Shown in pieces: positions 3,291 to 59,656 of a stretch of 64,000 nucleotides of DNA. Location of the stretch: positions 65,123 through 129,122 of the forward strand of contig DAIDAM010000002.1 of assembly GCA_027310625.1 (NCBI GenBank), written 5' to 3'. The stretch's first letter is position 1, and the number at the start of each line of letters is the position of its first letter. Source of the DNA: a bacterium. GTDB lineage: Bacteria; Patescibacteriota; Minisyncoccia; UBA6257; 2-01-FULL-56-20. The notes under the pieces are model-generated. The model did no database searches and was not told where the DNA came from. It saw only the letters and a list, made by a program, of their open reading frames with translations. A program made the position numbers and the translations under genes.

Positions 3291-5189
3291 ATGGAACAAT
3301 CACCTTCAAAAATTAGAAATTTTGTTGTCATAAGTCATATCGACCATGGGAAAAGCACTTTAGCCGACCGCTTTTTGGAAATCACGGGCACGGTGGAGGC
3401 GCGCCGCATGAAACCGCAGTATCTTGACCAACTTGAACTTGAAAGGGAACGCGGTATAACGATAAAGATGGCGCCTGTCAGGATGATTTATCATCCTGAC
3501 CGCGGAACAACGCGGAAAGACACGCGGAATGACGCAGGAAGTAATCTGTTGGAGGAGTATATTCTCAACCTGATTGATACTCCAGGGCACAGCGATTTTT
3601 CATACGAGGTTTCCCGCGCGCTCGCGGCCGTGGAAGGTGCAATACTCCTCGTTGACGCCACAAAGGGAATTCAAGCGCAGACACTTTCCAATTTTCGCGC
3701 CGCTAAAAAGGCGGGGCTCAAAATAATAGGCGCGGTCAACAAAATTGACCTCAACCCGCCCCGCGCGGGCGAATCGGCGCTGCTTCTCGCGGAACTTATC
3801 GGCGTTCCGGAAAAAGAAATTTTCAGGATTTCCGGAAAAACCGGCGAAGGAGTGCGGGACTTGCTTGATGCCGTTGTGGAACGGGTTCCGCCGCCCCGAA
3901 AGTCCGCGGAAAATTTTTCCCGGGCGCTGATATTCGACTCGCTCTACGACGACCATAAAGGAATAATTGCTTTCGTCCGGTTTTTCGACGGTTCTTTGAG
4001 TTCGGGAAACGAAGCGGAGCTTTTGGCTTCAAGAACAAAATTCCGCGTGAAAGAGTCGGGATATTTTTCTCCGCAGTTCAGGCCGGCTTCTTCGCTTTCC
4101 GGCGGCGAGATAGGATACGTGGCGACGGGATTGAAAGAGCCGTCGCTCGTGAAAATCGGCGATACTATCGTAGCGCGGAATCACGCAGACGGCACGCGGA
4201 ATTACGCGGAAAAAGTTCGGCGAGATTCTGCGTCAAGTCCGCGTCAGTCGGCGTCGTTGGTGTTGCCGGGCTACAAGGAGCCGTCGCCGGTGGTTTTCGT
4301 TTCGCTTTATCCCGACAGCGGAACGCAGTTCGAGGACTTGAAAAAAGCGATGGAGCGCCTGCGCCTAACCGATTCTTCGCTTTCGTTTGAGCAGGACTCG
4401 AGCGAGGCGCTGGGACGCGGTCTCAAGGCCGGATTTCTCGGCCAGCTCCACTTCGAGATAACGGCGAGCCGGCTGGAAAGGGAATTCGGGGTGAAATTCA
4501 TCGCGAGTTTTCCGTCGGTCGCCTACAGAGTTAAACTGAAAGGAAAGACGTCGGTTATAAAAGACCCCAACAATTTCCCGGACGACCCCGACGAAGTTTT
4601 ACAGCCAATGATGGGCGTGGAGATATTTTCGCCCGCGGATTACGTCAGCCAGATACTGGGCTTGAAGGAAAAGTTTCACATAGAGGTTTTGGAAATAAAA
4701 AACATCGGCAACAATGTCGTGATTTCGTCCAAGATGCCGCTCATCGAGCTTACGCGCAATTTTGACGACAGAATCAAATCGGTTTCCTCAGGATTCGCTT
4801 CTTTCAGCTATGAAATTTACGGAGAGGAGCCGGCGAAAGTCGAAAAAATGGAAATTCTGGTCAACGGCGAGCCGGTTTCGGCGCTGACGAGAATCGTTTT
4901 CAAGGACGAAGCGGAAACGGAAGCGCGCGCCACAGTGGAGCGCCTGAAGGAACTCCTGCCGAAGCAGCAGTTCGCCCAGGCGATTCAGGCAAAAGTTCGC
5001 GGGCGGATAACCGCAAGGGAAACCATTCCGGCGATGAAAAAACTGCTCGGCAATTTCGGCAAAACCGGCGGCGACAGGACGCGGAAAATGAAGCTTTGGA
5101 AAAAACAAAAGGAGGGCAAGAAAAAACTGAAGGGTATGTCGCGCGTCTCGGTTCCAACCGAGGTTTTTCGCGACCTTTTGAAGAAGTAG
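3291..5189 (+). CDS. lepA: Elongation factor 4 (LepA)
   Basis: IRNFVVISHIDHGKSTLADRFLE...LIDTPGHSDF; C-terminal LepA tail GKTGGDRTRKMKLWKKQKEGKKKLK. Contains a roughly 25-aa in-frame insert RRDSASSPRQSAS encoded by a palindromic mini-element. Confidence 0.9.
   Translation: MEQSPSKIRNFVVISHIDHGKSTLADRFLEITGTVEARRMKPQYLDQLELERERGITIKMAPVRMIYHPDRGTTRKDTRNDAGSNLLEEYILNLIDTPGHSDFSYEVSRALAAVEGAILLVDATKGIQAQTLSNFRAAKKAGLKIIGAVNKIDLNPPRAGESALLLAELIGVPEKEIFRISGKTGEGVRDLLDAVVERVPPPRKSAENFSRALIFDSLYDDHKGIIAFVRFFDGSLSSGNEAELLASRTKFRVKESGYFSPQFRPASSLSGGEIGYVATGLKEPSLVKIGDTIVARNHADGTRNYAEKVRRDSASSPRQSASLVLPGYKEPSPVVFVSLYPDSGTQFEDLKKAMERLRLTDSSLSFEQDSSEALGRGLKAGFLGQLHFEITASRLEREFGVKFIASFPSVAYRVKLKGKTSVIKDPNNFPDDPDEVLQPMMGVEIFSPADYVSQILGLKEKFHIEVLEIKNIGNNVVISSKMPLIELTRNFDDRIKSVSSGFASFSYEIYGEEPAKVEKMEILVNGEPVSALTRIVFKDEAETEARATVERLKELLPKQQFAQAIQAKVRGRITARETIPAMKKLLGNFGKTGGDRTRKMKLWKKQKEGKKKLKGMSRVSVPTEVFRDLLKK
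4182..4256 (+). repeat. Palindromic mini-element (ACGCNGA arm + TCNGCGT arm) inserted in frame in lepA
   Basis: acgcagacggcacgcggaattacgcggaaaaag...ttctgcgtcaagtccgcgtcagtcggcgtcg. Shares CGTCAAGTCCGCGTCAGTC with the cca and 23S copies. Confidence 0.6.
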
Positions 5190-12844: not shown

Positions 12845-12964
12845 TCCCGTTAGAGACAATAAGCAAATGCTTTTCATGAATAACTTTCAATTCCCCAAAA
12901 TGGTCGTTTTGCCGCATGCGGCGGGCGCTACGGTTGTCTAAAGACAACCTGTCTCTAACGGGAT
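12845..12964. mobile_element. MITE-like element, CCCGTTAGA family copy 1, ending at the pheS start codon
   Basis: ATCCCGTTAGAGACA...TGTCTCTAACGGGAT termini, with the pheS ATG (12963) immediately after CGGG. Same termini as the copies at 34501-34624 and 45899-45978. Confidence 0.6.
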
Positions 12965-14006
12965 GGAAATAGAGAAAATAAAGAAAGAAATCGTTTTGGA
13001 AATGGACAACGCCGCCGATTCGGCGGCAGTGGAAAAATTGCGCATCAAATATCTCGGCAGAAACGGGGAAATAAATTCGCTTTTCAAAAAACTGAAGGAT
13101 TTGCCGGTTGCCGAGCGGAGAAAAATCGGGCCGAAACTTCAATCGCTGAAGAGCGAACTGGGAGCGCTGTTTTCAAACAGGTTGGAGGTAAGCAAGAAAA
13201 CGAGCGTTGCGGCAAGCGTGGATTTGACAGCCCCCGCGAAAAAAGTGAGCAAGGGGCACCTTCATCCCTTGACGCTTGTTGACGCCGAAATCCGCCGCAT
13301 TTTTCTCGGGTTGAACTTTTCCGTTGTTGAAGGTCCCGAGGTGGAAAGCGAATACTACAACTTTGACGCGCTCAACGTTCCGGCGAACCACCCGGCAAGG
13401 GAAATGTGGGACACGTTCTGGCTTAAACAAGAGGCCAGAGACAAGAGACCAGAGACAAAATTACTATTGCGAACTCATACTTCTCCGGTGCAGATACGCT
13501 ACATGGAGAAAAACAATCCGCCGTTTCAAATCATAGTTCCCGGAAAAGTTTTCCGATACGAGGCGACGGACGCAAGCCATGAGGTTAATTTTTATCAACT
13601 CGAAGGTTTGATGGTTGGGAAAAATGTCAGTCTGGCGAATTTCAAATTCGTCGTCGAGGAATTTTTCAAAAAATTTTTCAGGGGACAAAAAATAGAATTC
13701 CGCTACCGGCCTGGATATTTCCCGTTCACCGAGCCGAGCGTAGAGGTGATTATAAAATTGCCCGCCCACGGCGGGGCCCTGCCCGACGGCGGGCGTGGCG
13801 CCTCGGGCGGAGAAAACAGATGGCTGGAGGTGATGGGCGCAGGAATGGTTCATCCGAAAGTTTTCGAGTATGCCGGCTACAATCCCCGCGACTGGCAGGG
13901 ATTCGCTTTCGGAGTCGGCATCGACCGACTGGCGATGATTAAATACAAAATCCCTGACATCAGAATGTTTTACTCGGGCGATTTGAGATTCATAAAACAA
14001 TTCTAA
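12963..14006 (+). CDS. pheS: Phenylalanine--tRNA ligase alpha subunit
   Basis: LLRTHTSPVQIRYM...FRYRPGYFPFTEPSVEV...WLEVMGAGMVHP class II motifs. Contains an EARDKRPETK insert from a tandem AGAGACA x3 tract and a GC-rich palindromic insert HGGALPDGGRGASGG. Confidence 0.9.
   Translation: MEIEKIKKEIVLEMDNAADSAAVEKLRIKYLGRNGEINSLFKKLKDLPVAERRKIGPKLQSLKSELGALFSNRLEVSKKTSVAASVDLTAPAKKVSKGHLHPLTLVDAEIRRIFLGLNFSVVEGPEVESEYYNFDALNVPANHPAREMWDTFWLKQEARDKRPETKLLLRTHTSPVQIRYMEKNNPPFQIIVPGKVFRYEATDASHEVNFYQLEGLMVGKNVSLANFKFVVEEFFKKFFRGQKIEFRYRPGYFPFTEPSVEVIIKLPAHGGALPDGGRGASGGENRWLEVMGAGMVHPKVFEYAGYNPRDWQGFAFGVGIDRLAMIKYKIPDIRMFYSGDLRFIKQF
13435..13459 (+). repeat. Tandem heptamer (AGAGACA/AGAGACC) x3 in frame in pheS
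   Basis: ccagagacaagagaccagagacaaa; 21 nt equals 7 codons. Confidence 0.5.
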
Positions 14007-14015
14007 AAATTAGAT

Positions 14016-14711
14016 ATGTTCGATCTACAAAGGAATTATCCCAACTTCGAAAATTTCAGAAGAGAGGAAAATGTTGCAGAACAGGAAATATCGGCCGCCG
14101 AAAAGAAGCCTCAGCGCGTGTTTGTTGATTTCGGCGCCGGCAGACACCCTGTTGCCGGAGCTGACTGGGAAAAATTCCGAGATAATTACACTTATGTTGC
14201 AATTGATTACGATCCAGAAGAACTGAAATTTGGGAAGAACGATCTGCTGGAAAAAATAGGATACATTCCGGAAAATGTTCTTTTCGTTCAATCAAACGGT
14301 AAAAACATTCCTCTTCAAAGCAATTCAGTCGACGAAATTTATTTCGGAAATGTCTTTGGAGAACCTTTTCGAAAAGAATTTAAAAAAAAGAAAGAACCCG
14401 AGCTGATCTCTGAGCGTAAAACAATAATTGATATAAGAAACTTTGTTAGCGAAGCTGGCAGGATTTTGAAGGACAACGGATTAATCGTTATTTTGGAAAC
14501 ATATACACCAACCGATTCAAGTGAGAATGATTTAAAGAAAACGCTTGAAAGCGCAGGCTTTGTCATCGAAAAAAGAATCGGAGCTGAAGATCCTGGATTT
14601 GTTACAGAGTGGCGCAAATATGATTCTTTCCATGAACACTTCAGTCGAAAGGGGGAAGGCATCGGCGGTGAATCATACATTCTTTATGCGCGCAAGAAAA
14701 AAGAGAAATGA
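14016..14711 (+). CDS. Class I SAM-dependent methyltransferase inserted between pheS and pheT
   Basis: Motif I VDFGAGRHP; acidic post-I and motif II-like segments. Markedly lower GC than pheS and pheT. Confidence 0.65.
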   Translation: MFDLQRNYPNFENFRREENVAEQEISAAEKKPQRVFVDFGAGRHPVAGADWEKFRDNYTYVAIDYDPEELKFGKNDLLEKIGYIPENVLFVQSNGKNIPLQSNSVDEIYFGNVFGEPFRKEFKKKKEPELISERKTIIDIRNFVSEAGRILKDNGLIVILETYTPTDSSENDLKKTLESAGFVIEKRIGAEDPGFVTEWRKYDSFHEHFSRKGEGIGGESYILYARKKKEK

Positions 14712-14728
14712 ATCTATAATTAACAAAT

Positions 14729-16795
14729 ATGAAGTTCTCATACTCATTGATTAAAAAGTTGTCGCCGCGGCTGCCGAATATTTCCAAAGCGGCAGAAACG
14801 CTCAACCTTTACTCGTTTGAAGTTGAAGACGCGGCGGGCGATTTGTTGGACATCGCTCTGCCGGCGAACAGATACTCCGACGCCGCTTCGCATCTCGGAA
14901 TCGCGCGCGAACTTTCGGCGGCGCTCGGAAAGCCGCTCAAAAATCCCGTAAAGCTCATCGTCAATCCGCCGAGCGACCAAGGATTGATCGAGGTGGAGGT
15001 GGAAAATAAAGCCGCCTGTCCGCGGTATGCCGCGCGTGTTTTTGAAATCAAAAAAATGCCGGCGACTCCGTTGTGGATGAAAAATGTTTTGAAAACCTGC
15101 GGCGTAAAATCAATAAACGGCGTCGTCGACCTGATGAATTACGTGATGCTTGAAGTCGGACAGCCGCTCCACGCTTTCGATTTCGATAAAATCGCGGACA
15201 AACGCGGACGGCACGCGGATAAACGCGGAAAGTTTCAGCGTAATTCAGCGTTAAGTCAGCATAAGTCAGCGTCAATTATTGTGAGGAAAGCCAAAAAAGG
15301 CGAGCGAATCGAGACGCTCGATGGCCAACGTCTCGAACTCGATGCGAATGACATTGTTATCGCCGACGCTTCGCGCGCCATTGCAATCGCCGGCGCAAAA
15401 GGCGGAGCGAATTCCGGCGTCGACGGGAAGACGAGGCGGATAGTCGTGGAGGCGGCGAATTTCGACCCCGTGAGGATTTTCAAAACCTCGCGGCGGCTGA
15501 AGCTCGCGACAGACGCGAGCATAAGGTTCTCGCACGGCTTGAGTCCCGCGCTCGTCGATTTCGGAATGGACAGGGTAACGGAGCTTCTCAAAAAATCCGG
15601 CGCGAAACTTGTTGATTCCGTTGATGTTTACCCGCGGCGCGCAGGCGACGAAATTATAGAGTTTGACGCGGAGAAGTACGAAAATTTCATCGGTGCCGCC
15701 GTTTCACCGGCAAAAGCGAAGAAAATTTTTGCGAGATTGTCTTTCGCCGTTGTGAAGGCACGTACCAACGCGGATAAAAAATCAGCATCAATCAGTAGAA
15801 ATCAGCATAAATCAGCGTTCTTAGTCAGAGTTCCCGCCTGGAGGACGGACATTGAAAATCCGGAGGACTTGATGGAAGAAATCGCGCGGTTCGTCGGCTA
15901 CAACAAGCTGAAACCGCAGGCGCCCGCCATTTCTCTCAAGCCGGCGGAAGAAGAAGACATAGTCGTTTTCAAAGACAGAATGAGAAAATTTTTGTCGGGC
16001 GCCGGACTGAACGAGGTTTACAACCATTCTTTTTCTGCCGAAGGCGGAAGCGCGGCAGTGGAACTTGAAAATCCGATAAGCTCCGAGTTTAAAAATCTCC
16101 GCCAGTCGCTTGCGGGCGGATTGATTAAGAATGTAAAAGACAACGGCAGATTCTTTGACGAAGTGAGAATTTTTGAAATCGGAAAAGTTTTCAAAAAAAC
16201 GAAGAGCGGCGTCGGCGAAAAATTGAATCTCGGCGTCGCCATCGGCGCGAGAAAAAAGTCGTTTATCCGCGAAGTCAAAGGCATCGTTGACGATTTGCTC
16301 AAGGGTCTCGGCGTCGCCGATTTTTACATGGCGGAATCGGGAGCGGGAAATCTTCAAATAGAAATTGATAAAAAAATAATCGGAAACATAAAAATTGTGG
16401 ATGTCGGAAAAGGCCTGCCCGCCGGCAGGCAGGGGTGGGTTGCGACCGTAGGCGAAATGAATCTTGACGCGATTCTGCCGATTGTTGAAGAAGAGCGAGC
16501 TTTCAAGCCGCTGCCGAAATATCCGGCGGTGATGCGCGACGTTTCCATTCTTCTTCCCGCGGACGTAAGAATCGGAAGAGTTCTTGAGGTTATTGACGGC
16601 GCTTCGTCGGAAATCGCGGAGAACGTTGATTTGGTTGACGAGTATGTTGACAAGAAGTTCGACGGGAAACAGAGTTTAACATTCAGAATTATTTTCCAAT
16701 CGGAGGAAAGAACGCTCACGGACGCGGAAGTGAATCGCGATCTTTCGAAAATAATCGCGGCGCTCAAAAAATCTTTCAAGGCGGAAATCAGATAA
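14729..16795 (+). CDS. pheT: Phenylalanine--tRNA ligase beta subunit (short form)
   Basis: Position directly after pheS; tRNA-binding N-terminus, B3/4 and B5 regions, C-terminal FDGKQSLTFRIIFQSEERTLTDAEVN. Two in-frame palindromic mini-element inserts. Confidence 0.85.
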   Translation: MKFSYSLIKKLSPRLPNISKAAETLNLYSFEVEDAAGDLLDIALPANRYSDAASHLGIARELSAALGKPLKNPVKLIVNPPSDQGLIEVEVENKAACPRYAARVFEIKKMPATPLWMKNVLKTCGVKSINGVVDLMNYVMLEVGQPLHAFDFDKIADKRGRHADKRGKFQRNSALSQHKSASIIVRKAKKGERIETLDGQRLELDANDIVIADASRAIAIAGAKGGANSGVDGKTRRIVVEAANFDPVRIFKTSRRLKLATDASIRFSHGLSPALVDFGMDRVTELLKKSGAKLVDSVDVYPRRAGDEIIEFDAEKYENFIGAAVSPAKAKKIFARLSFAVVKARTNADKKSASISRNQHKSAFLVRVPAWRTDIENPEDLMEEIARFVGYNKLKPQAPAISLKPAEEEDIVVFKDRMRKFLSGAGLNEVYNHSFSAEGGSAAVELENPISSEFKNLRQSLAGGLIKNVKDNGRFFDEVRIFEIGKVFKKTKSGVGEKLNLGVAIGARKKSFIREVKGIVDDLLKGLGVADFYMAESGAGNLQIEIDKKIIGNIKIVDVGKGLPAGRQGWVATVGEMNLDAILPIVEEERAFKPLPKYPAVMRDVSILLPADVRIGRVLEVIDGASSEIAENVDLVDEYVDKKFDGKQSLTFRIIFQSEERTLTDAEVNRDLSKIIAALKKSFKAEIR
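15198..15277 (+). repeat. Palindromic mini-element copy (ACGCGGA arm + TCAGCGT arm) in frame in pheT
   Basis: gacaaacgcggacggcacgcggataaacgcggaaag + tttcagcgtaattcagcgttaagtcagcataagtcagcgtcaatt, translated ADKRGRHADKRGKFQRNSALSQHKSASI. Confidence 0.6.
15762..15838 (+). repeat. Second mini-element copy (ATCAGCA/ATCAGCG heptamer tract) in frame in pheT
   Basis: aaaaatcagcatcaatcagtagaaatcagcataaatcagcgttcttagtcag, translated KKSASISRNQHKSAFLV. Confidence 0.55.
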
Positions 16796-17233: not shown

Positions 17234-18868
17234 ATGCGATTCATCATTCCCGAAGAAATATCGGACATTTCAAAAAAGCTCAAGAAAGCCGGTTTCAAGG
17301 TGTACCTCGTCGGCGGGTGCGTTCGCGACCTTTTGACGAACGTAGTGCCGCCCCTTCGGGGCGAGCCTCGCCCTGACGGGCGGGAACCGAAGGACTGGGA
17401 CATAGCGACGGACGCGAAGCCGGATGAGGTGCAGAAAATTTTTCCCGACAGCGTCTACGAAAACGAATTCGGCACCGTTTTGGTGAAACTAAAACCGCTG
17501 ACCGGCGCAGATTTACCCGCCAAAGTTTCCGAAGGAAATTCAGGCGGGCAGGCGCAGAAAAACGCAGACACGTTTCCGCGTCAATCCGCGTCAAGTCCGC
17601 GTCAGTCCGCGCTGAATGTGGTGGAAATCACCACGTTCCGTTCCGAGGGAAAGTACACCGACAAGCGCCATCCCGACGAAGTGAGATTCGCGGAAACGAT
17701 TGAAGAGGATTTGTCGCGCCGCGATTTCACGATCAACGCCATCGCCCTCAACATCGGCGGCGTCGCGCAAAAACTGGTTGACCCGTTCAACGGGCAGGAA
17801 GATTTGAAAAAAGGAATTGTCCGCGCCGTCGGTAATGCCGAAGAAAGATTCAACGAAGACGCATTACGCCTTATCAGAGCGGTACGCTTCGCTTCCGAGC
17901 TTGGATTTTCCGCCGGAGGCGGACCGGTCTCGGGCTGGCAGATTGAGTTCAACACCAGACGCGCGATAGAAAAGTTCGCCGGGCTTTTGGAAGCGATAGC
18001 GAAGGAAAGGATACGCGACGAATTTACGAAGATAATAATGTCCGACGGAGCGGCGGGAGGAATTATTCTTCTTGAAGAGCTCGATTTGCTCCGCTACGTT
18101 TTGCCGGAACTTCGCGAGGGCATCGGCGTCGGCCAAAACAAACATCACATTTACACCGTTTTCGAGCACAACGTGAAATCTTTGGATTACTCGGCGAAGA
18201 AAAATTATTCCCTCGAAGTTCGTCTCGCATCCCTGCTTCACGACCTCGGCAAACCGAAAGCAAAAAGAGGCGAAGGACCGGACTGCACTTTCTACGGACA
18301 CGAAGTCGTCGGCGCCAAAATGGCCGTGAGAGCTTTAGAACGTTTGCGTTTTTCGAAAGACGTAATTGAAAAAGTAGTCCATCTCGTCCGCTACCACATG
18401 TTTTACTACAACGTCGGCGAGGTGAGTGAAGCGGGAGTGCGTCGTTTTATCGCCCGCGTCGGTCCGGAAACCGTTCCGGATTTATTGAAACTTCGCGAAG
18501 CGGACCGCATCGGCTCCGGCGTGCCGAAAGCCGTCCCTTACAAAATGCGCCACCTTCTTTTCATGATTGAAAAGGTTAAAAACGACCCCGTTTCGCCGAA
18601 GATGCTCAAAGTGAAAGGCGACGACGTGATGAAAATTCTCGGAATCGAGCCAGGCCCGCGCGTCGGCTACATACTTTCCGCGCTTCTTGAAGAAGTTCTT
18701 GACGACCCTTCCAAAAACGATTCGCCGCATCTTGAAAGGCGCGTCCGCGAGCTCGGAAAATTGAGCGATTCCGAACTGAACGGAATTTCAAAAAAGGCGA
18801 AAGAAAAAAAGGATGAATTCCAAGCGGGAATTGAAGAAGAAATGAAAAAAAAGTATTATGTCCGCTAA
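17234..18868 (+). CDS. cca: CCA tRNA nucleotidyltransferase / poly(A) polymerase family with HD domain
   Basis: YLVGGCVRDLL head motif and HD domain (LLHDLGK, HE...RYHM). Carries an in-frame insert of about 35 aa ending TFPRQSASSPRQSAL from a mini-element. Confidence 0.85.
   Translation: MRFIIPEEISDISKKLKKAGFKVYLVGGCVRDLLTNVVPPLRGEPRPDGREPKDWDIATDAKPDEVQKIFPDSVYENEFGTVLVKLKPLTGADLPAKVSEGNSGGQAQKNADTFPRQSASSPRQSALNVVEITTFRSEGKYTDKRHPDEVRFAETIEEDLSRRDFTINAIALNIGGVAQKLVDPFNGQEDLKKGIVRAVGNAEERFNEDALRLIRAVRFASELGFSAGGGPVSGWQIEFNTRRAIEKFAGLLEAIAKERIRDEFTKIIMSDGAAGGIILLEELDLLRYVLPELREGIGVGQNKHHIYTVFEHNVKSLDYSAKKNYSLEVRLASLLHDLGKPKAKRGEGPDCTFYGHEVVGAKMAVRALERLRFSKDVIEKVVHLVRYHMFYYNVGEVSEAGVRRFIARVGPETVPDLLKLREADRIGSGVPKAVPYKMRHLLFMIEKVKNDPVSPKMLKVKGDDVMKILGIEPGPRVGYILSALLEEVLDDPSKNDSPHLERRVRELGKLSDSELNGISKKAKEKKDEFQAGIEEEMKKKYYVR
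17552..17611 (+). repeat. Palindromic mini-element copy in frame in cca
   Basis: ggcgcagaaaaacgcagacacg + tttccgcgtcaatccgcgtcaagtccgcgtcagtccgcg. Confidence 0.6.
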
Positions 18869-25586: not shown

Positions 25587-25672
25587 ATCCGAACATTCCG
25601 AATTTCATCCGAATTACCCGAATATTCGGGACATTCGGATGCATTCGTAGATTCGGATTGCGTAGGCGAATG
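25587..25672. repeat. Palindromic repeat family B (CCGAATATTCGGG...CATTCGGATGCATTCGTAG.TTCGGATTGCG), copy 1, in the 23S leader
   Basis: Near-identical copy at 27955-28040 inside the 23S. Confidence 0.55.
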
Positions 25673-25827
25673 AAATGAGCATGCATTAAGGGCTAATGGT
25701 GGATGCCTAGACATCAAAAGGCGACGAAGGACGCGGCGTAGCTGCGATAAGCTTCGGTGAGGTGCGTAGCAACCGATGACCCGGAGATTTCCGAATGGAG
25801 CAATCCAACACAGTAAACCTGTGTTGT

Positions 25828-25969
25828 CGTGCCTCACTATCGTTCGGCACTATTGCTATCGCGCGAATGGGCGAATTATTACGAACATACGAATTATTAA
25901 ACTGATTCGTAAGTTCGTATCCTATTCGTAAATTCGTGCGATAGAAGTGGCGAGCGGCAGCGAGGCACG
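25828..25969. repeat. 23S palindromic insertion, family A copy 1 (CGCGCGAATnnGCGAAT...TTACGAAC.TACGAAT...TTCGTAAATTCGTGCGATAGAAGTGGCGAGCGGCAGCGAGGCAC)
   Basis: Flanked by complementary GTGCCTCAC...GCGAGGCAC; interrupts conserved 23S sequence before GAAACATCTCAGTA. Confidence 0.6.
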
Positions 25970-26049
25970 ACGCAAACCCGCTGAAGTGAAACATCTCAGT
26001 AAGCGGAGAAAAAGAGAACAATCAAGTCCTCTGTTTCACATATCCCATC

Positions 26050-26235
26050 AATTTGACAGAGCGAATCTTGAGACAGATTCGCGGCGCGAGGAGCGCAGTG
26101 TGCCGGTAGGCACATAAGCGACGAGCAACAAAGAAGCTGGCCAAGATTCGCCTGCCCGAAAGGGAAACGAAAAATTGGCCGATTTCTGTGTTGCTCCTCG
26201 TCGACGTAGCTTTGGCTACAATCTCCTCGTTGCGC
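26050..26235. repeat. 23S insertion, family C copy 1 (GATTCGCGGCGCGAGGAGCGCAGTGT...ATAAGCGACGAGCAACAAA...GTTGCTCCTC)
   Basis: Second copy at 30650-30900. Confidence 0.5.
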
Positions 26236-26341
26236 CTTGAAGTCGTCTCATTCTTTCGCTTTCAAATTTGACGGTATATGTGAAATAGAGGACGTTATTC
26301 CCTCAGTAGCGGCGAGCGAAAAGGGAAGAGCCGAAACTAAT

Positions 26342-26475
26342 CGTGCCTCACCGCCGTTCAGCACTCCATCGCGCGAATAGCCGAATTTTTACGAACGTAC
26401 GAATGAAACCAATTCGTATGTTCGCGCCGATTCGTAAATTCGTGCGATAGAAGTGGCGAGCGGCAGCGAGGCACG
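26342..26475. repeat. 23S family A copy 2
   Basis: cgtgcctcaccgccg...ttcgtaaattcgtgcgatagaagtggcgagcggcagcgaggcacg. Confidence 0.6.
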
Positions 26476-26507
26476 ATTGGGGTAACAAGAGAGAAACGCT
26501 CTTAAAG

Positions 26508-26580
26508 TGTCACGTGTCATGGGTCATGTGTCAGGATTTTTCTTGATACTTGATACTTGACACCTGATACTTTGAGGTGG
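26508..26580. repeat. Tandem heptamer tract in the 23S (GTGTCAC/GTGTCAT/GGGTCAT/GTGTCAG then CTTGATA x3)
   Basis: Direct reading. Confidence 0.5.
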
Positions 26581-26813
26581 AGAAGTTACAAAATTTTTGC
26601 CTAGCTGAATCTGCTGGAAAGCAGAACCAAAGACGGTGAAAGTCCGGTAGGCGAAAGGCAAAAATCTTCTTAGTTTCCCGGCGCACATAATTTATGTGCG
26701 CAGCCGAGCACAAAACTTGTTTTGTGCTCTGGTTTATCTTCAGTACTTCGAGGCAAAAAAACTTCGAAGGAATTAGCGAGTACTATCTCGCAAGGCTAAA
26801 TACTTTTGATGAT

Positions 26814-26850
<37 letters not shown>

Positions 26851-26904
26851 CAGGCCGGTGAGGCCGTTGAAATAGAACCTGAAACCATTTGCCTACAAGG
26901 ATTC

Positions 26905-27033
26905 GGAGCTCTCCGCTATCGCTTTGAGCTCCTCTATCGCGCGAATATGCGAATTCTTACGAATGTACGAATTCGTAAATTCGTATTTTTTTCGTAATTC
27001 GTGCGATGGGGAACTCCGAGCGGTAGCGAGGAG
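26905..27033. repeat. 23S family A copy 3
   Basis: ctatcgcgcgaatatgcgaattcttacgaatgtacgaattcgtaaattcg...ttcgtgcgatgggg. Confidence 0.55.
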
Positions 27034-27140
27034 TGACGAAGTGCCTATTGAAGAATGAGCCAACGACTTATGGTGCATTGCTTGTGTAAGTACCTTTAAG
27101 GGATGTACGCGCAGGGAGACCGAGTCTTAATAGGGCGTAT

Positions 27141-27266
27141 CGTGTCTCACTATTGTTCGACACGTTATCGCGCGAATAAGCGAATAATTACGAACTTACG
27201 AATTCGTATATTCGCAACCGATTTGTAAATTCGTGCGATAGAAGTGGCGAGCGGCAGCGAGGCACG
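27141..27266. repeat. 23S family A copy 4
   Basis: cgtgtctcactattg...gcgcgaataagcgaataattacgaacttacgaattcg...ttcgtgcgatagaagtggcgagcggcagcgaggcacg. Confidence 0.6.
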
Positions 27267-27607
27267 AAAAGCAGTGCATCATAGACCCGAAGCCGGATGA
27301 GCTTGCCTTGGCCAGGTTGAATTTCGCAGAAATGCGGGAGGAGGACCGAACTGGTGGGTTGTTCAAAACCCTCGGATGAGCTGAGGCAAGGAGTGAAAAG
27401 CTAATCGAATTCGGTAATAGCTGGTTCTCTCCGAAATAGTTTTAGGACTAGCGGTGAAAGTTACCTGTGGGGGTAGAGCTACTGGATGATTCGTAAAGGC
27501 CGAAAGGCCGGCGAATCAATCAAACTCCGAATACCGCAGGCCATATTTCACTAGTCAGACTGTGGGGGCTAAGCTCCATGGTCAAAAGGGAAACAGCCCA
27601 ACGCTCA

Positions 27608-27720
27608 ACTTCGTTTCGCTTCATCGCGCGAACAAGCGAATTTTACGAATGTACGAATCTGTATTCGTAAGTTCGTAATTTATTCGTAAATTCGTGCGAT
27701 GGATGCGAGCGGAAACGAGC
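27608..27720. repeat. 23S family A copy 5
   Basis: catcgcgcgaacaagcgaattttacgaatgtacgaatctgtattcgtaagttcgtaatttattcgtaaattcgtgcgatgg. Confidence 0.55.
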
Positions 27721-27954
27721 ATCAGATCATCATCTAAGGCCCCTAAATGCGCGCTAAGTGTTAAAGGCAGTCGTAATCCATAGACAGATAGGAGGTTGGC
27801 TTAGAGGTAGCCATCCTTTAAAGAGTGTGTAACAACTCACTATTCGACTCGCCTCGCTTCGCGAGAGCGAAGCTGGGTGGGACCGCGGCGCCGAAAATGT
27901 ACCGGGGCTAAGCGCGCTGCCGAAGATATGAATCGTTCGCTTCGCTCACTGTTG

Positions 27955-28040
27955 CAATCCGAACAATCCGAATTCCATCCGAATGTTCCGAATATTCGGG
28001 GCATTCGGATGCATTCGTAGGTTCGGATTGCGGTAGCGAG
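27955..28040. repeat. Family B copy 2 inside the 23S
   Basis: caatccgaacaatccgaattccatccgaatgttccgaatattcggggcattcggatgcattcgtaggttcggattgcgg. Confidence 0.55.
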
Positions 28041-28587
28041 CGGAGCGAGCGGTGGTAGGAGAGCATTCCCGTTGCGCCGAAGGAAGATCCGCGAGGACTT
28101 CTGGAGCGGCGGGAAGAGAGAATGTTGGCATGAGTAACCACAATCCTAATGAGAAATTGGGACCCCGAAAATCCAAGGTTTCCGTGGCACTGGCAATCAA
28201 CCACGGGTTAGTCGGCCCTAAGGCGATGGCGAAAGCCGCAGCCGATGGACAGACGGTTAATATTCCGTCACTCCCGCAGTTTTCAATGGAGGGACGAGAT
28301 TCAGTAGATGGAGCGCCTTATTGGTTTGGCGTCCTTGCGCGAGGATTCCCGGCTGGAAAATCCGTCGGGATGCGTTCAATCGCAAATCCCAGCAAAAAGG
28401 CAACTCCGATGTTTTCATTGGGGGAGTTCGTCGAGCGGATCTCCAAGAAAAACTTCTAAGGTTAAAATTGCGGAATCCGTACCGTAAACCGACACTGGTG
28501 GATAGGGCGAGAAGCCCAAGGGGAACGAGTGATTCGCCGTTAAGGAACTCGGCAAAAAAGCGGCCGTAAGTTAGCGATAAGGCCTGC

Positions 28588-28660
28588 CTTGTTCGGATGT
28601 CGGACTTCGGACGTCAGATTTCGGATAATCTGGCATCTGATTTCTGAAATCCGATATCTG
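28588..28660. repeat. Palindromic TCGGATG/TCAGATT heptamer tract in the 23S
   Basis: ttcggatgtcggacttcggacgtcagatttcggataatctggcatctgatttctgaaatccgatatctgaac; the two halves are reverse complements. Confidence 0.5.
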
Positions 28661-29290
28661 AACTAGGCCGCAGCGAAAGTTTTCCTGGCGACTGTTTACC
28701 AAAAACACAGCTCCCTGCGAACTCGCAAGAGGATGTATAGGGGGTGACGCCTGACCGATGCGAGAAGGTCAAGACTGCCTGTCGCATCTCACTAAGGTGA
28801 GATGCTCTGATATTCATTGAAATTAGTTCGCCGAAGGCGAACGAAAATTAATAGAAATTATTGGTGATAAATTTCGCGAGCGAAGCGAGCAAATTTCTAT
28901 AAATTTCAGCGAAGCGAATATCAAAAGCACCGAACTTTAGTGAGGTGCGGCGGAGTGGTTCAAGCCCTCGTCAATGTCAGCAATAACTATAATTGTTCTA
29001 AGGTAGCGCAGTTCCTTTCCGGGTAAGTTCCGGAGCGCACGAATGGCGTAACGACTGGGAAACTGTCTCGACGGCGAGCTCGGTGAAAATGCGATTCCCG
29101 TGAAGACGCGGGATACCTGCAGCGGGACGGAAAGACCCCGGAAGCTTTACTGCAGCTTGGTATTGGCTTTAAGGTCTTGATGCGTAGCGTAGTGGGGAGG
29201 GTTTGAAGCTCCGATTTCGGTCGGAGTGGACCCGACAATGAAACACCCATCTTTAGGACTTTAAATTCTAACCATACCAGAACCCCTCTT

Positions 29291-29390
29291 TGCGCATAAG
29301 CGCAAAGCGCAGAAGGACGCAGAATGAACGCGGACTAACGCAGAATTTTTTTCAGCGTGGGTCTGCGTAAAGTCAGCGTGAGTCAGCGCT
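29291..29390 (+). repeat. Composite palindromic mini-element (ACGCAGA arm + TCAGCGT arm) in the 23S, copy a
   Basis: gcgcagaaggacgcagaatgaacgcggactaacgcagaa + tttttttcagcgtgggtctgcgtaaagtcagcgtgagtcagcgc, closed by cctctttg ... caaagagg. Confidence 0.6.
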
Positions 29391-29630
29391 TTGTTTACTC
29401 GTGAACAAAGAGGGGAAGCTGGTGAGGGACAGTGCTTGGCGGGCAGTTTCAATGGGGCGTTGTCCTCCTAAAGAGTAACGGAGGAGTCTATTAAGGTCGG
29501 CTTGGCCCGGATGGAAACCGGGCTGGACGCGTAAAGGCAGAAGCCGGCTTAACTGCAAGACCTACAAGTCGCGCAGATGCGAAAGCAGAGCTTAGTGACC
29601 CGACCACTATGTCAGTGCTTCGCACTGACC

Positions 29631-29708
29631 GCAGAATAACGCGGAACGAACGCAGAACTACGCAGAACTTTCAGCGTAAGTCAGCGTCAAGTCCGCGTGA
29701 GTCCGCGG
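29631..29708 (+). repeat. Composite palindromic mini-element in the 23S, copy b
   Basis: cgcagaataacgcggaacgaacgcagaactacgcagaac + tttcagcgtaagtcagcgtcaagtccgcgtgagtccgcgg. The right arm is near-identical to the lepA and cca copies. Confidence 0.65.
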
Positions 29709-29917
29709 CCAATGCGGAGCATTGGCTCTTCATAGAAAGGTGGGAGACACCGGATAAAAGCTACTCCGGGGATAACAGGCTGGTGAGATCCGAGAGTCCC
29801 TATCGACGATCTCGCTCGGCACCTCGATGTCGGCTCATCCTAGCGCGGGGCTGGAGAAGGTCCCAAGCGTTTGGCTGTTCGCCAATTAAAAGGATACGTG
29901 AGCTGGGTTCAGACCGT

Positions 29918-30585
29918 CAAAATAACTGAACCGAGGACATCAAGCACGGCGGCTCGTCGCCGCAAGGCGACCCGAATAAATCGACTCATATCGGTGGAGT
30001 CCTAGCACGGCAACCTGTCATATGCTAGGATAATACCGAGGGAAGTTGCATATGTTGAATCTTTCGTCAACGCAAAAAGCATATTTAGCGGGATTTCTAG
30101 ACGGCGATGGGAGTATCTACGTGCGGCTGAAACCAAATACCGATTACAAGTATGGTTTTCAGGTTGCACCGTACGTTATTCTTTTCCAATCGTCCAAAGA
30201 ACGTAAGAAATTTGAAAAGGTTTGTTCCTTAATTGGTCTCGGATACATTCGAGAAAGAAAGGATAGAATTTTGGAATACACCATCGGCAGGGAAAAAGCA
30301 ATCAAGTTTTTTCTTAAAATGGTGATTCCGTATCTGATTCTAAAAAAGAAGCAAGCAATTCTTACGTTGGAAATCCTGGATATGAAAATGAAAATCAAAA
30401 ACAAGAACGATTTTCAGGCGTTGATGAATAAGATAGATATTTTTCGTAATCTGAATTATTCGAAAAAGCGTAAAAAGCATGTGTTAACCTCGTAGAGACT
30501 ACACGTCGATCCCGAGCACATAAAGCGTTGCGTGCTTCGGTGGTGGTATAGTCCGACACTCTTAGTAATAGGAGATTACAGTATG
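29918..30585 (+). mobile_element. Presumed group I intron in the 23S at the I-CreI-type site (between CGT and CGTGAGACAG), carrying a LAGLIDADG ORF
   Basis: Conserved exon sequence GGGTTCAGACCGT | ... | CGTGAGACAGGTCGGTCCC is reconstituted if 29918-30585 is removed; the insert ends in G and the 5' exon ends in T. Confidence 0.6.
30046..30495 (+). CDS. LAGLIDADG homing endonuclease, single-motif homodimeric type
   Basis: KAYLAGFLDGDGSIYV motif; 149 aa; AT-rich; located inside the rRNA insert. Confidence 0.85.
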   Translation: MHMLNLSSTQKAYLAGFLDGDGSIYVRLKPNTDYKYGFQVAPYVILFQSSKERKKFEKVCSLIGLGYIRERKDRILEYTIGREKAIKFFLKMVIPYLILKKKQAILTLEILDMKMKIKNKNDFQALMNKIDIFRNLNYSKKRKKHVLTS

Positions 30586-30649
30586 CGTGAGACAGGTCGG
30601 TCCCTATCTGTTGCAGGCGTAGAGTTCTCTCTGCACAAATTGCACGACT

Positions 30650-30900
30650 CGCAATCGTAGCTATTTTGTTTCGGATTCGCGGCGCGAGGAGCGCAGTGTA
30701 TCCTCTGTGATACATAAGCGACGAGCAACAAAAACAAAGAAGACGAACAAAATAGCACGACCGGAGGAGCTTCCGAAATCGCACGATTTCGGCGTTGCTC
30801 CTCCTCAACGTGCTTTCCAACAAGCACAATTTCGTCGTCGCGCCTTGAACTCGCGCGATTTCGGAAGCTTTGCGATGTCGCGGAATTTGTGCAGAGAGAA
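30650..30900. repeat. 23S family C copy 2
   Basis: gattcgcggcgcgaggagcgcagtgtatcctctgtgatacataagcgacgagcaacaaaaacaaag...gttgctcctcctcaacgtgctttcc...cgtcgtcgcgccttgaactcgcg. Confidence 0.5.
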
Positions 30901-31007
30901 CCAATACTTGAGGGGAGTTGGAATTAGTACGAGAGGACTTTTCTGAACGGACCTCTGGTGTACCGGCTTTGGTACCAACTGAAGCGCCGGGTAGCTATGT
31001 TCGGAAG

Positions 31008-31041
<34 letters not shown>

Positions 31042-31076
31042 ACCCCAAGATTAGGTATCAGCGTGCGTAGCACAAT

Positions 31077-31185
31077 GTTCGGTGTTCGATCGCTTCGCTT
31101 GTTCGATTTGTTCGAATTGTTTTTACTTCGAACATTCGAACTTCGAACGTTTCGAACGCGAGCATCGCGCTGCGCGCGCAAGGTT
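31077..31185. repeat. TTCGAAC-rich repeat tract inserted near the 23S 3' end
   Basis: gttcgatcgcttcgcttgttcgatttgttcgaattg...cttcgaacattcgaacttcgaacgtttcgaacgcgagcatcgcgctgcgcgcgc between conserved CCCCAAGATTAGGTATC and CCACGTTGATAGG. Confidence 0.5.
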
Positions 31186-31262
31186 TCGTGGGAGACTACC
31201 ACGTTGATAGGTTCTAGATGTAAGGCCCGCAAGGGTTTTAGTCAAGGAATACTAATAACCTG

Positions 31263-31380
31263 AAAAGCTCAATTTCGTATTCGCTTTATCGCTCGAATAA
31301 ACGAATCTTTACGAACATGCGAATTCGTAAGTTCGTATTACTATTCGTAAATTCGTGCGATGATGCGAGTGACGCGAGCA
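31263..31380. repeat. Family A copy 6, directly after the 23S 3' end and before the processing stem
   Basis: atttcgtattcgctttatcgctcgaataaacgaatctttacgaacatgcgaattcgtaagttcgtattactattcgtaaattcgtgcgatgatgcgag. Confidence 0.55.
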
Positions 31381-31421
31381 TGCTGATTATCCCAATGCTG
31401 ACTGCCAGCGCTCTGCGCTGG
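31378..31421 (+). other. 3' strand of the rRNA processing stem (pairs with 25523-25566)
   Basis: See 25523-25566. Confidence 0.55.
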
Positions 31422-31473
31422 AAATCCTAAATTCTAAATCTGAAATTCTAAACAAGGCATCAAAACTCTTGTC

Positions 31474-31578
31474 TGCCGGTGTTTTATCTATGTGTGTTCC
31501 ACCTCCCGCCAAGTTTGATTGGGCGAGGCTCGCCCGTAAAACGGGCAGTTATCCTCCCGCACTAAATTTTCTCCAGTG
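31474..31578 (+). pseudogene. Degenerate partial duplicate of the 5S rRNA 5' region
   Basis: gtctgccggtgttttatctatgtgtgttccacctc resembles the downstream tcccggtgatttagtgatatgtgtcctacctc. Confidence 0.3.
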
Positions 31579-31580
31579 GT

Positions 31581-31699
31581 TTCCCGGTGATTTAGTGATA
31601 TGTGTCCTACCTCTTCCCATTCCGAACAGAGAAGTAAAAGCATATCACTCCGATGATACTCATGGCTTCGGCTGTGGGGAAAGTAGGACTCGCCGGGAT
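31581..31699 (+). rRNA. rrf: 5S rRNA
   Basis: TCCCGGTGATTTAGTGATATGTGTCCTACCTCTTCCCATTCCGAACAGAGAAGTAAAAGC...GGGGAAAGTAGGACTCGCCGGGA aligns to the 5S consensus (CCGAAC..GAAGT.AA.C, GAGAGTAGG); helix I ends are complementary. Confidence 0.7.
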
Positions 31700-43824: not shown

Positions 43825-43935
43825 AATCAGCATAAATCCGCTGAAATCAGCATAAATCGGCGTAGTAAAGTTAATGAAAAGTATCGAAAGTCAATAACGC
43901 TGATAAATGCTGATTAAACCGATTAATGCGGATAA
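43825..43935. repeat. Inverted repeats of the ATCAGCATAAA unit in the rpsF-ssb spacer
   Basis: aatcagcataaatccgctgaaatcagcataaatcggcg ... cgctgataaatgctgattaaaccgattaatgcggataaaa; the halves are reverse complements. Confidence 0.55.
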
Positions 43936-44400: not shown

Positions 44401-44468
44401 ATCAAATCTCAAATTACAAATCTGAAATCTGAAAAGTTTAGAATTTCAAAATTCAAATTTTAACTAAG

Positions 44469-44677: not shown

Positions 44678-44740
44678 TCACGAAATACGAAATAGTACGA
44701 ATATACGAATTCGTGCGTTCGTAGAAATTAGTATTAGTAA
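44678..44740. repeat. Partial family A palindromic element outside the rRNA
   Basis: cacgaaatacgaaatagtacgaatatacgaattcgtgcgttcgtag shares the ACGAAT/ATTCGT units of the 23S insertions. Confidence 0.4.
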
Positions 44741-58561: not shown

Positions 58562-59626
58562 TTGAATTTCCATTACCTAGCGAATCAGATGAATCCTGCC
58601 TTGGACAGGGAGAAAATTTTTTATAACGCCGCTTTTTCTGCTCTCAGAGGCGATTACCGCAAACTTCAAAAATTGAAATCGGACTTGTCTTCGTGGGAGG
58701 AAGTTTTTGAAAGCACTCGTAGCATTGAAAGAAACGTAAATCCCGAGGAAGAATGGGAAAAACTGAAAAAGTGCGGCGCAGAACTCGTTTTTTCTGACGA
58801 ACCGGAATTCCCGCGGCTTCTCCGTGAAATTTACTTCGCTCCTTTCGGAATTTATGTAAAAGGAAATCCGGGGATTTTTGAAAAGACATCCGTTTCCGTT
58901 GTAGGCACGAGAAAAGCCACGGACGACGGATTGGAAACCGCGGGAAAATTCGGCCGCGATTTCGGAAGGGCGGGCATTGTTGTGGCAAGTGGTCTTGCTT
59001 TCGGCATTGATTCCGCGGCCCACAAGGGGTGCGTTTCCGCCGGAGGAAAAACGGCAGCCGTTCTCGCCTGCGGTGTGGATGAAGTTTATCCGAAAACGAA
59101 CGAACGACTCGCAAAAGAAATCCTCGCTTCCGGCGGCGCGATTATTTCCGAATATCCCGTTGGCACCCCGCCGCTTCCCCACAGATTCATCGAGCGCAAC
59201 AGAATTGTAAGCGGGCTTTCGGTTGGCGTGGTGATAATCGAGGCGCCCGAATCCTCGGGCTCGCTCGCAACGGCAAGATTCGCTTCGGAGCAAAACAGAG
59301 AGGCCTTTGTCGTTCCCGGTCCCGCGGGGCACAGAAATTTTTCCGGTTCTCATCGCTTGATAAGAAACGGGGCACGCCTCGTTTCAAACGCCGGCGACGT
59401 TTTGGAGGATTTGGGCATTGTTGAACCCCCGCCGACGCTTGCGGAAACGGAAGAAGAAAAAACAATTCTTGAAATACTTGAAAACTCAAAGTCGCCGCTG
59501 GAAGTTGACAAAATTTCCGAAATGTCCAATCTTGAATCCCGTGTCGTGAATGAGACCATCACCATTCTTCTTTTCAAGAATTTGGTTAAAGAAGAAAAAA
59601 ATGGCTATATCACAAACAAATTCTGA
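58562..59626 (+). CDS. dprA: DNA processing protein DprA (Smf)
   Basis: VVGTRKATDDGLETAGKFG...GIDSAAHKGC...ESSGSLATARFA Rossmann-like DprA core. Confidence 0.85.
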   Translation: MNFHYLANQMNPALDREKIFYNAAFSALRGDYRKLQKLKSDLSSWEEVFESTRSIERNVNPEEEWEKLKKCGAELVFSDEPEFPRLLREIYFAPFGIYVKGNPGIFEKTSVSVVGTRKATDDGLETAGKFGRDFGRAGIVVASGLAFGIDSAAHKGCVSAGGKTAAVLACGVDEVYPKTNERLAKEILASGGAIISEYPVGTPPLPHRFIERNRIVSGLSVGVVIIEAPESSGSLATARFASEQNREAFVVPGPAGHRNFSGSHRLIRNGARLVSNAGDVLEDLGIVEPPPTLAETEEEKTILEILENSKSPLEVDKISEMSNLESRVVNETITILLFKNLVKEEKNGYITNKF

Positions 59627-59656
59627 TGTCTGATGTCTAATATCTGATTTCTTAAC

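Follow-up and report, generated by a model that had tools for sequence, protein, structure and literature searches.

The gene cca, which encodes a CCA-adding enzyme, carries at positions 17552-17611 of a 64,000-nucleotide stretch of contig DAIDAM010000002.1 (the window) a run of short inverted repeats that is read in frame with the enzyme, and similar repeats lie in lepA, pheT, dnaG, the 23S rRNA gene and the spacer between rpsF and ssb. What kind of sequence this is, and how it came to reside in essential genes, is the question raised by the locus. The interval is interpreted here, with a probability of about 0.7, as part of a ~160-nt copy, without an open reading frame (ORF), of a palindromic mobile-element family; the copies in the other genes and in the spacer would be of the same kind, and the full form would carry a nuclease gene.

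The heptamers ACGCGGA and TCAGCGT occur 18 and 17 times in the window, against 4.2 and 3.4 expected, respectively, and a three-unit pattern was matched nine times for either arm and never in 100 dinucleotide shuffles, which bears out the clustering of copies described in an earlier sequence-only reading of this DNA. That reading was also right about the host genes of the copies (with the arrays described below, NCBIfam identifies lepA, pheS, pheT, cca, dnaG, rpsF, ssb and topA; the 23S rRNA gene was likewise borne out), about the peptides SASSPRQSA, SALSQHKSAS and SAFSQRESA, and about a shared string, which is found unaltered in cca and matches at 22/23 positions in lepA and in 23S_b, one of the two 23S copies (23S_a and 23S_b). 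Each arm is composed of four heptamers separated by spacers of 3, 4 and 3 nt (10-11-10 nt from start to start); the arms are opposed, as had been proposed, but their units do not stand head to tail. In a mini-element, which measures ~82 nt in total, a loop of 4-7 nt rich in A/T separates four NCGCRGA units from four TCMGCGT units. This single anatomy, with two inverted arms of four N-CGC-N-GA heptamers at 10-11/12-10 nt spacing, is common to six of the eight listed copies (lepA site 2, pheT site 1, dnaG, 23S_a, 23S_b, and cca once a nested insert is removed). The one architecture claimed for all copies does not extend to pheT site 2, which amounts to a right arm, or to the rpsF-ssb copy, where a TCAGC... 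arm comes first and a ...GCTGA arm second, with partly different heptamers. Long imperfect hairpins are formed by seven of the eight copies (z of -3.1 to -6.6 against shuffled sequence), pheT site 2 being the exception to the claim that every copy folds. The list of copies was itself incomplete, a copy in lepA with a left arm only having been overlooked (Table 1).

The interval in cca reads GCGCAGA-aaa-ACGCAGA-cacgtt-TCCGCGT-caa-TCCGCGT-caag-TCCGCGT-cag-TCCGCG. It had been placed correctly, but its extent was underestimated: the full span is 17477-17637 and includes further left units, a nested palindrome that belongs to a separate small-hairpin family, and a hairpin at each junction. Among related cca alleles, L202-L204 are filled with canonical elements of four units in each arm (4+4), and the empty allele, L205, encodes there a loop of 11 aa that is unrelated and contains no heptamers. 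The left junction hairpin is perfect over 8 bp in L202, lies in a different register in L203 and is missing from L205; the right one is perfect over 12 bp in L202 and L203, and the empty allele encodes K-I-I there and has no palindrome. In 14 Cca orthologues that are 67-81% identical to the window protein, the insert is present in six (P0122, P0123, P0137, P0138, P0154 and P0240) and absent from eight (P0124, P0125, P0127, P0128, P0133, P0149, P0187 and P0192). The left arm of P0240 has grown to ~10 units encoding NAD/TQINAD (alignment columns 150-260), which indicates that arms can grow locally after insertion.

Such growth is what would be expected if the repeats had arisen at each site by replication slippage and palindrome growth, with no transfer between sites, and the genome is indeed rich in period-7 arrays, ACGAAT-/CCGAAT-type hairpins and CCGCC..GGCGG hairpins. 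This origin is nevertheless strongly disfavoured and is given only a very slight chance. Five window copies (lepA site 2, pheT site 1, dnaG, 23S_a and 23S_b) were aligned with one another; they lie at unrelated sites and share the number of units, the 3-4-3 spacers and spacer bases such as CGGC, CAAG and GAG, without a gap over either arm and with gaps in the loop only. Slippage also leaves unexplained that the identical architecture recurs across phyla and that the arms bracket a gene in full-length copies. The earlier preference for a mobile family is thus upheld by the gap-free copies and the patchy orthologues.

Insertion in frame into essential genes, also proposed in the sequence-only reading, was confirmed by alignment of orthologues, the inserts being absent from some proteins of 70-80% identity and from Aquifex primase. 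Residues 212-239 of DnaG form a clean 28-aa insertion where the Aquifex primase 2au3 has 3 residues. At pheT site 2, a longer version is common to the window and the locus L119. The genome is CPR-like (Candidate Phyla Radiation), as had been supposed; its closest homologues are found in Candidatus (Ca.) Liptonbacteria / Paceibacterota. The window LepA protein is also present in an independent Logan assembly, so an assembly error is unlikely. For 16 LepA-embedded elements, insert identity does not correlate with host identity (Spearman -0.07; Mantel r = 0.17, p = 0.07); there are pairs with an insert identity of 0.81 and a host identity of 0.47, and others with 0.55 and 0.74. This incongruence, together with patchy presence among 70-80% identical orthologues, argues that the element moves, and it indicates repeated, homing-like horizontal arrival at one LepA site in divergent hosts.

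A DNA-pattern scan for three phased units was made in one genome per GTDB species, and its figures refer to the matches listed. Among these, canonical 4+4 copies were found in many lineages of Patescibacteria and in Omnitrophota, Betaproteobacteria, Acidobacteriota, Cyanobacteria, Chloroflexota and Bacteroidota; the inserts had been expected to be lineage-specific, and for the family this does not hold. The betaproteobacterial locus L046 has, between its two arms, an ORF of 140 aa assigned to TIGR04256 ("GxxExxY protein", E = 4e-39) and PF13366 (PDDEXK_3, E = 4e-38), whose N-terminus, MNADVTPMNAE, is encoded by the arm itself. A metagenome scan picked 80 GxxExxY loci by protein and not by DNA motif. 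At least two units flank the gene on both sides in 46 of these and on at least one side in 60; many of the remaining 20 appear to have variant heptamers (flanks read by eye, uncounted). Exactly four units are present in 56 of 71 arrays at these loci, spaced 10-11-10 in 28 and 10-12-10 in 18. Two pairs of sites about one helical turn apart would be a layout for protein binding on duplex DNA. These comparisons show an arm architecture that is conserved across phyla, with the arms flanking putative nuclease genes of the GxxExxY type. The nuclease core is predicted to adopt a generic PD-(D/E)XK fold, in which the residues E, D, E and K are invariant; the AlphaFold2 model of a free-standing nuclease has a predicted local distance difference test score (pLDDT) of 91 overall and ~50 at the arm-encoded termini, which are modelled as disordered tails.

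As read from its sequence, the full element is ordered as a left-flank palindrome, a left arm (four ACGCNGA, 10-11/12-10 bp), a gene for a PD-(D/E)XK protein of ~125 aa (GxxExxY, PF13366), a mirrored right arm and a right-flank palindrome. The mini copies are shown by the same comparison to have matching arms and junction hairpins and no ORF. No phage vector was found: a scan of viral contigs gave 11 matches, none of them canonical palindromic and none with a GxxExxY gene, all in contigs of GC 0.53-0.71 (ten at >=0.63). The GIY-YIG and HicA ORFs of locus L071 were considered as an alternative cargo and rejected, their flanks being two separate complete mini-elements.

The metagenomic GxxExxY loci lie within open frames of more than 250 aa in 44 of 80 cases. 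Pfam assigns the host proteins to RecG, LeuRS (three loci), SecA, GatB (two loci), a further class-I aminoacyl-tRNA synthetase and a GT4 glycosyltransferase. The closest relatives of the window LepA (60-75% identity, Ca. Liptonbacteria / Paceibacterota) include many proteins of 750-823 aa with an internal PF13366 domain, in which left-arm peptide, nuclease domain and right-arm peptide follow one another in frame between ...PVRM and EYILNLIDTPGH. The embedded nuclease ORFs have no start codon of their own and retain the catalytic E..D..ExK residues, and the LepA proteins that carry them are annotated as "GxxExxY protein". Alignment of these loci shows the full element of Patescibacteria in frame in loops of LepA, RecG, LeuRS, SecA and GatB, where it forms an open insert in housekeeping proteins that is apparently read through. 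At lepA site 1 of the window, relatives carry arm-GxxExxY-arm at exactly the same site and other orthologues carry nothing; the window has the left arm and the junction palindromes as in L119, without the nuclease ORF and the right arm, and this comparison shows it to be a deletion derivative of the full element. A LeuRS ORF in L199 (28-3342) contains, besides an in-frame GxxExxY element, an alpha/beta-hydrolase domain (PF00561, residues 710-819) within the synthetase.

The host codons just outside the arms are followed or preceded by their own reverse complement. The left LepA junction is GTCAGGATGAT TT ATCATCCTGAC in the window, GTGCGTATGGTATACCATACGCAC in L190 and GTTCGCATG...CATGCGAAC in L198; the right one is CAGGTTGAGTAT adjoining ATACTCAACCTG in L163, with equivalent palindromes in other alleles. 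The mirrored sequence tracks the synonymous codon choice of each host. In the 10-bp helix of the left LepA junction, 98.9% of cells are paired (28-50% in slid controls) and four of the ten pairs have changed on both sides, a result reached by 0 of 500 shuffles; three of nine palindromes are perfect to the centre. Among the in-frame elements of LepA, RecG and LeuRS, 8 of 18 left junctions and 12 of 18 right junctions have a hairpin of at least 9 bp, a length reached in only 1.6% of control windows. In the window, junction palindromes are present at lepA site 1 and cca and weak or absent at dnaG and lepA site 2. They may be created by integration, the ends of the target being duplicated in inverted form, as happens if an end capped by a hairpin is opened away from its centre; alternatively, the flanks may travel with the element by co-conversion and their pairing be kept by selection.

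All five coding copies of the window have the right arm in a single reading frame (S-A-x-S-Q/P-R-x-S-A). Within long ORFs across genomes, the left arm is read as NADxTQxxAE in 24 of 31 cases and the right arm as xQRxSAxSxR in 12 of 12, and these frames are those of the free-standing nuclease ORFs examined, as judged from their ends (start MNAD..., end ...QRKSA). The arms are shown by this agreement to be read, where translated, in fixed frames. The sequence-only reading had placed the emphasis elsewhere, attributing a uniform orientation to selection against stop codons, on the ground that (ACGCTGA)n would put TGA in all three frames. With the 10/11-nt spacing only two frames are affected, and the antisense strand keeps one stop-free frame in lepA, pheT site 1 and cca (three of four full coding copies). 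The element is nearly palindromic, so its orientation is barely definable and carries little information; the non-random feature is, on present comparisons, the reading frame.

The folding of the copies into long stems and the covariation of the junction hairpins could also mean that the inserts are removed at the RNA level, the arm stem and junction hairpins acting as a processing signal of the intron type, with excision and re-ligation by enzymes of the host, or of the type known from RNase III-cleaved intervening sequences (IVSs). Mature rRNA and protein would then lack the inserts. The rRNA copies sit at hairpin tips, as in classical IVSs, and short ORF-less non-intron inserts of CPR 23S genes are thought to be IVSs of the RNase III type (PMC11270868). 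For the inserts in general this explanation is regarded as unlikely, as for the coding copies it does not account for the near-universal lack of stops, the fixed frames and the start-less embedded ORFs with their catalytic residues. A gathering scan of the window with Rfam found only LSU (large subunit rRNA), 5S and tRNA families and no intron family, an Rfam E-value scan of the canonical intergenic copy L046 found neither a family nor an intron, and the several junction palindromes that are perfect to the centre are better explained as DNA palindromes than as RNA stem-loops. Excision without ligation is quite plausible for the rRNA copies and is compatible with a mobile element.

Both 23S copies were placed by Rfam alignment; MAFFT alignment to Escherichia coli 23S rRNA misplaces inserts of the 5' domain, because a "682-nt insert" in it holds genuine 23S segments. 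In 23S_a, 137 nt stand in place of the 4-nt apical loop of a hairpin, and in 23S_b, 131 nt in place of a 12-nt hairpin tip; each is an extended stem at the apex of a 23S helix, as in IVSs. Two other Patescibacteria loci (L016 and L060) share the CCAATG..CATTGG flank of 23S_b, which suggests insertion at the same 23S site.

Copies that are common, in diverged form, to several related genomes at one site are old enough that a benefit to the host has to be considered: the hairpins may be rRNA expansion segments or mRNA structures that are gene-converted between sites and selected. The compensatory changes in the junction hairpins are consistent with this, as is the presence of inserts in 82% of CPR 23S genes (PMC11270868). 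It is considered improbable, however, in view of the patchy presence even in close orthologues, the conflict between insert and host phylogenies and the decay of copies (pheT site 2, the left arm standing alone in lepA, and in cca an arm split by another palindrome). The same arms also delimit a nuclease gene in unrelated phyla and contexts, and no functional context is common to LepA, PheT, Cca, DnaG, rRNA tips and an intergenic spacer.

Extra sequence in the 23S gene totals ~1.4 kb. Within the gene lie five copies, each ~130 nt long, of a second palindromic family (74% mean column identity), with arms of GCGAAT/ACGAAT units and an outer stem GTGCCTCAC...GCGAGGCAC; smaller relatives lie outside the gene. 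Phased CCGAAT/ATTCGG and TTCGGAT/ATCCGA hairpins are also present just upstream of and inside the gene, one of them nested in a larger inverted repeat. No 16S rRNA gene was found in the window by the Rfam scan, and the 5S gene lies ~1.55 kb downstream of the 23S end (region 25676-31699), the intervening spacer being full of small palindromes.

For the mobile element, a mechanism may be outlined. The nuclease would bind each arm at two pairs of heptamers that face the same side of the DNA helix, and would make breaks from which host repair copies the element into new or empty sites. ORF-less copies could be mobilised in trans or be born by internal deletion. Copies would persist only where a read-through peptide is tolerated in a surface loop or where the only effect of the hairpin is a longer helix tip in rRNA. 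Read-through would yield insert peptides such as ...NADTFPRQSASSPRQSA..., and the arm-encoded stretches, modelled as disordered only at the termini of the free-standing nuclease, may act as hydrophilic linkers. A more far-reaching proposal is made tentatively, at somewhat less than even odds: that these elements form a new selfish class, in which a homing-type nuclease gene without intron or intein resides in protein loops and rRNA tips and is translated through, its heptamer arms serve as both linkers and recognition sites, its inverted target flanks resemble the "P nucleotides" of hairpin opening, and it spreads across phyla and yields mini copies. No account of the arms, the in-frame lifestyle, the junction palindromes or the GxxExxY element was found in the searchable open-access literature.

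Several observations weigh against the interpretation of the copies as a nuclease-borne mobile family. Codon-aware alignment with L119 of lepA site 2 and of pheT sites 1 and 2 gave neither a clean empty site nor a target-site duplication; no such duplication or clean filled/empty junction can be defined because the closest relative is only ~75% identical. In the available, diverged filled and empty alleles no direct repeats were seen at the junctions, and inverted flank copies are present instead. By tblastn, the GxxExxY gene is absent from the 64-kb window, so a source in trans in this genome is only putative, and no nuclease was found at the site of the mini-element in the cca, dnaG and pheT orthologues examined; it may be that the mini copies spread otherwise than through deletions in full copies. 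Some high-GC matches of the DNA pattern are probably due to chance. The arms pair imperfectly: their spacers lack complementarity and mismatches at the centres of heptamers are frequent, so that the hairpin is a string of short helices and internal loops, yet its stability is much greater than that of shuffled sequence. That the inserts are translated is inferred from their open frames. For the GxxExxY family, we know of no nuclease activity, DNA binding or cleavage specificity. No solved structure was found for the family, and PF13366 is listed as of unknown function (PMC3424549).

Other repeats are also present in the window (Table 1). Small GC-rich hairpins (CCGCC-N3-4-GGCGG and longer) occur in roughly 14-18 instances, depending on loose matches; those in frame in cca (PPLRGEPRPDG and SAGGGPVSGW) and pheS (PAHGGALPDGGRGASGG) are found in only some orthologues. 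The tandem-heptamer inserts reported for murD, pheS and topA are real and distinct, but they are strict period-7 arrays without spacers, unlike the arms phased at 10.5 nt, and are not kin to them. In murD, (CATCAGT)x4 on the minus strand is in frame as SSVISHQSSV just before the P-loop; ACAAGAG-type period-7 units are in frame in pheS, and further arrays lie just after ssb and just before topA. The genes rpoB and rpoC are fused in a 2273-aa ORF (RpoB, residues 8-1056; RpoC, 1072-2250), an arrangement that NCBIfam models as a beta/beta' fusion. The window has separate pheS and pheT genes, unlike L206 (LepA ~73% identical), which has a single 383-aa PheRS-like gene (tRNA-synt_2d and FDX-ACB, 14246-15397).

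Table 1. Positions of the elements, their parts and other features in the numbering of the window; z is relative to shuffled sequence.
Feature	Position	Strand	Remarks
cca gene	17234-18868		544-aa CCA-adding enzyme (NCBIfam)
cca left junction hairpin	17477-17495	+	Host codons V-L-V-K, then near-complement (GTTTTGGTgaaACTAAAAC); fold
cca left-arm units 1-2	17495-17511	+	CCGCTGA ccg GCGCAGA; comparison with intact 4-unit left arm of L202
Nested 40-nt GC-rich palindrome interrupting cca left arm	17512-17551	+	TTTACCCGCC...GGCGGGCAG; absent here in L202 and L203
cca left-arm units 3-4	17552-17568	+	GCGCAGA aaa ACGCAGA; interval of the sequence-only reading starts here
cca right arm	17575-17611	+	Four TCCGCGT units, 3/4/3 nt spacers; peptide P-R-Q-S-A-S-S-P-R-Q-S-A
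cca right junction hairpin	17615-17637	+	AATGTGGTGgaaatCACCACGTT; inverted copy encodes N-V-V, pairs with host I-T-T-F; fold
lepA site 1, remnant	3477-3569	+	Left junction palindrome 3477-3500, solo left arm 3500-3538, right junction palindrome 3548-3569
lepA site 2, complete 4+4 mini-element	4173-4254	+	In frame (ARNHADGTRNYAEKVRRDSASSPRQSA); z = -4.3; patchy among orthologues
pheT site 1, complete 4+4 mini-element	15192-15272	+	In frame; z = -3.1; largely absent from syntenic L119
pheT site 2, degraded	15768-15831	+	One left unit, five right-type units; no hairpin; z = 0.03
dnaG, complete 4+4 mini-element	50528-50609	+	In frame; z = -3.7
23S rRNA gene	25676-30030		4355 nt; Rfam
23S_a, 4+4 mini-element within 137-nt insert	29307-29389	+	z = -6.6; Rfam LSU model ~2225-2250
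23S_b, 4+4 mini-element within 131-nt insert	29629-29708	+	z = -5.1; Rfam LSU model ~2420-2447
rpsF-ssb spacer hairpin, arms reversed	43827-43932	+	TCAGCAT-type units, then ACGCTGA/ATGCTGA; z = -4.8
Junction palindromes seen	3477-3500, 3548-3569, 17477-17495, 17615-17637		Also in L119-L198 (LepA), L132/L139/L160 (RecG), L186 (LeuRS)
Second 23S palindromic family	25836-25972, 26338-26480, 26905-27035, 27138-27268, 27600-27725
Smaller relatives of second 23S family	31310-31337, 44684-44735
CCGAAT/ATTCGG and TTCGGAT/ATCCGA hairpins	25606-25641, 27976-28011, 28592-28662		First just upstream of 23S, others inside
Larger inverted repeat with one nested CCGAAT/TTCGGAT-type hairpin	27934-28051
Small GC-rich hairpins	17348-17383, 17910-17922, 13762-13774, 17512-17551, 23153, 23710, 54755, 54770 and others
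Strict period-7 tandem arrays without spacers	282-312, 13427-13458, 44402-44434, 59622-59652
rpoB-rpoC fusion	36548-43369	+
pheS and pheT	12963-16795		Separate genes

Several known systems resemble the family in part. We know of no Rickettsia palindromic element (RPE) whose arms are composed of four phased heptamers. RPEs are ~150 bp long and comprise ten families; R. conorii has 44 insertions, of which almost half lie in ORFs (PMC10969869). The likeness noted in the sequence-only reading is supported as one of behaviour only: in both cases short palindromic repeats lie in frame in unrelated housekeeping ORFs of a reduced genome and add a peptide, and the window copies are found in RNA genes as well. 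The present family differs in its host phylum, its cross-phylum distribution, its PD-(D/E)XK coding form and its junction palindromes made from host flanks. [quoted passage not shown] They differ in that the partner gene is no known transposase, no direct target-site duplication was found in the diverged alleles available and the flanks carry the host sequence in inverted form, and the "terminal inverted repeat" is composed of four iterons at intervals of about one helical turn.

IVSs of 23S rRNA occur, for example, in Salmonella, Leptospira and Coxiella. The Coxiella IVS, a selfish element of 428 nt, lies in helix 45 and contains an ORF (PMC4990558), and CPR 23S genes contain many short uncharacterised ORF-less inserts (PMC11270868). 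The present elements share with IVSs the hairpin inserts at 23S helix tips and the horizontal spread; unlike IVSs they also lie in frame in protein genes, and their cargo is GxxExxY and not an S23p/four-helix-bundle protein. Homing endonucleases of inteins and introns offer a further parallel, with a nuclease gene inside housekeeping genes (for a GTPase, a helicase, aminoacyl-tRNA synthetases and SecA), the same site in divergent hosts and an incongruent phylogeny. The inserts in LepA, RecG, LeuRS, SecA and GatB, however, contain only PDDEXK_3/PF13366 and no Hint or splicing domain by Pfam, and no group I or II intron RNA was found by Rfam. They are flanked by low-complexity peptides encoded by the heptamers, which may serve as disordered linkers, and the insert appears to stay in the mature protein. 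Repetitive extragenic palindromic sequences (REPs), with their bacterial interspersed mosaic elements (BIMEs) and REP-associated tyrosine transposases (RAYTs), are likewise short palindromic repeats tied to a dedicated small nuclease-type gene and spread genome-wide. Their enzyme is an HUH Y1 transposase and REPs have no in-frame coding copies, whereas the present elements are ~82 nt long, mostly intragenic, without GTAG/CGTC heads and associated with a PD-(D/E)XK gene. REPs are 20-40 bp long and extragenic and have GTAG/CGTC heads (PMC3733652).

The family accounts for a large share of the short non-intron inserts in rRNA genes of CPR/Patescibacteria and may account for low-complexity peptide inserts in their housekeeping proteins. 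These inserts inflate and mis-name gene calls and disturb rRNA- and protein-based CPR phylogenetics. The large GxxExxY/PF13366 family is given a likely role as a mobile-element nuclease, and if this nuclease recognises the 10-11-10 heptamer arrays, it would be a compact and possibly programmable DNA-recognition module. The junction palindromes provide a concrete molecular signature of the integration chemistry. Beside introns and inteins, the element would be a third means by which a nuclease gene can reside in essential genes without killing its host.

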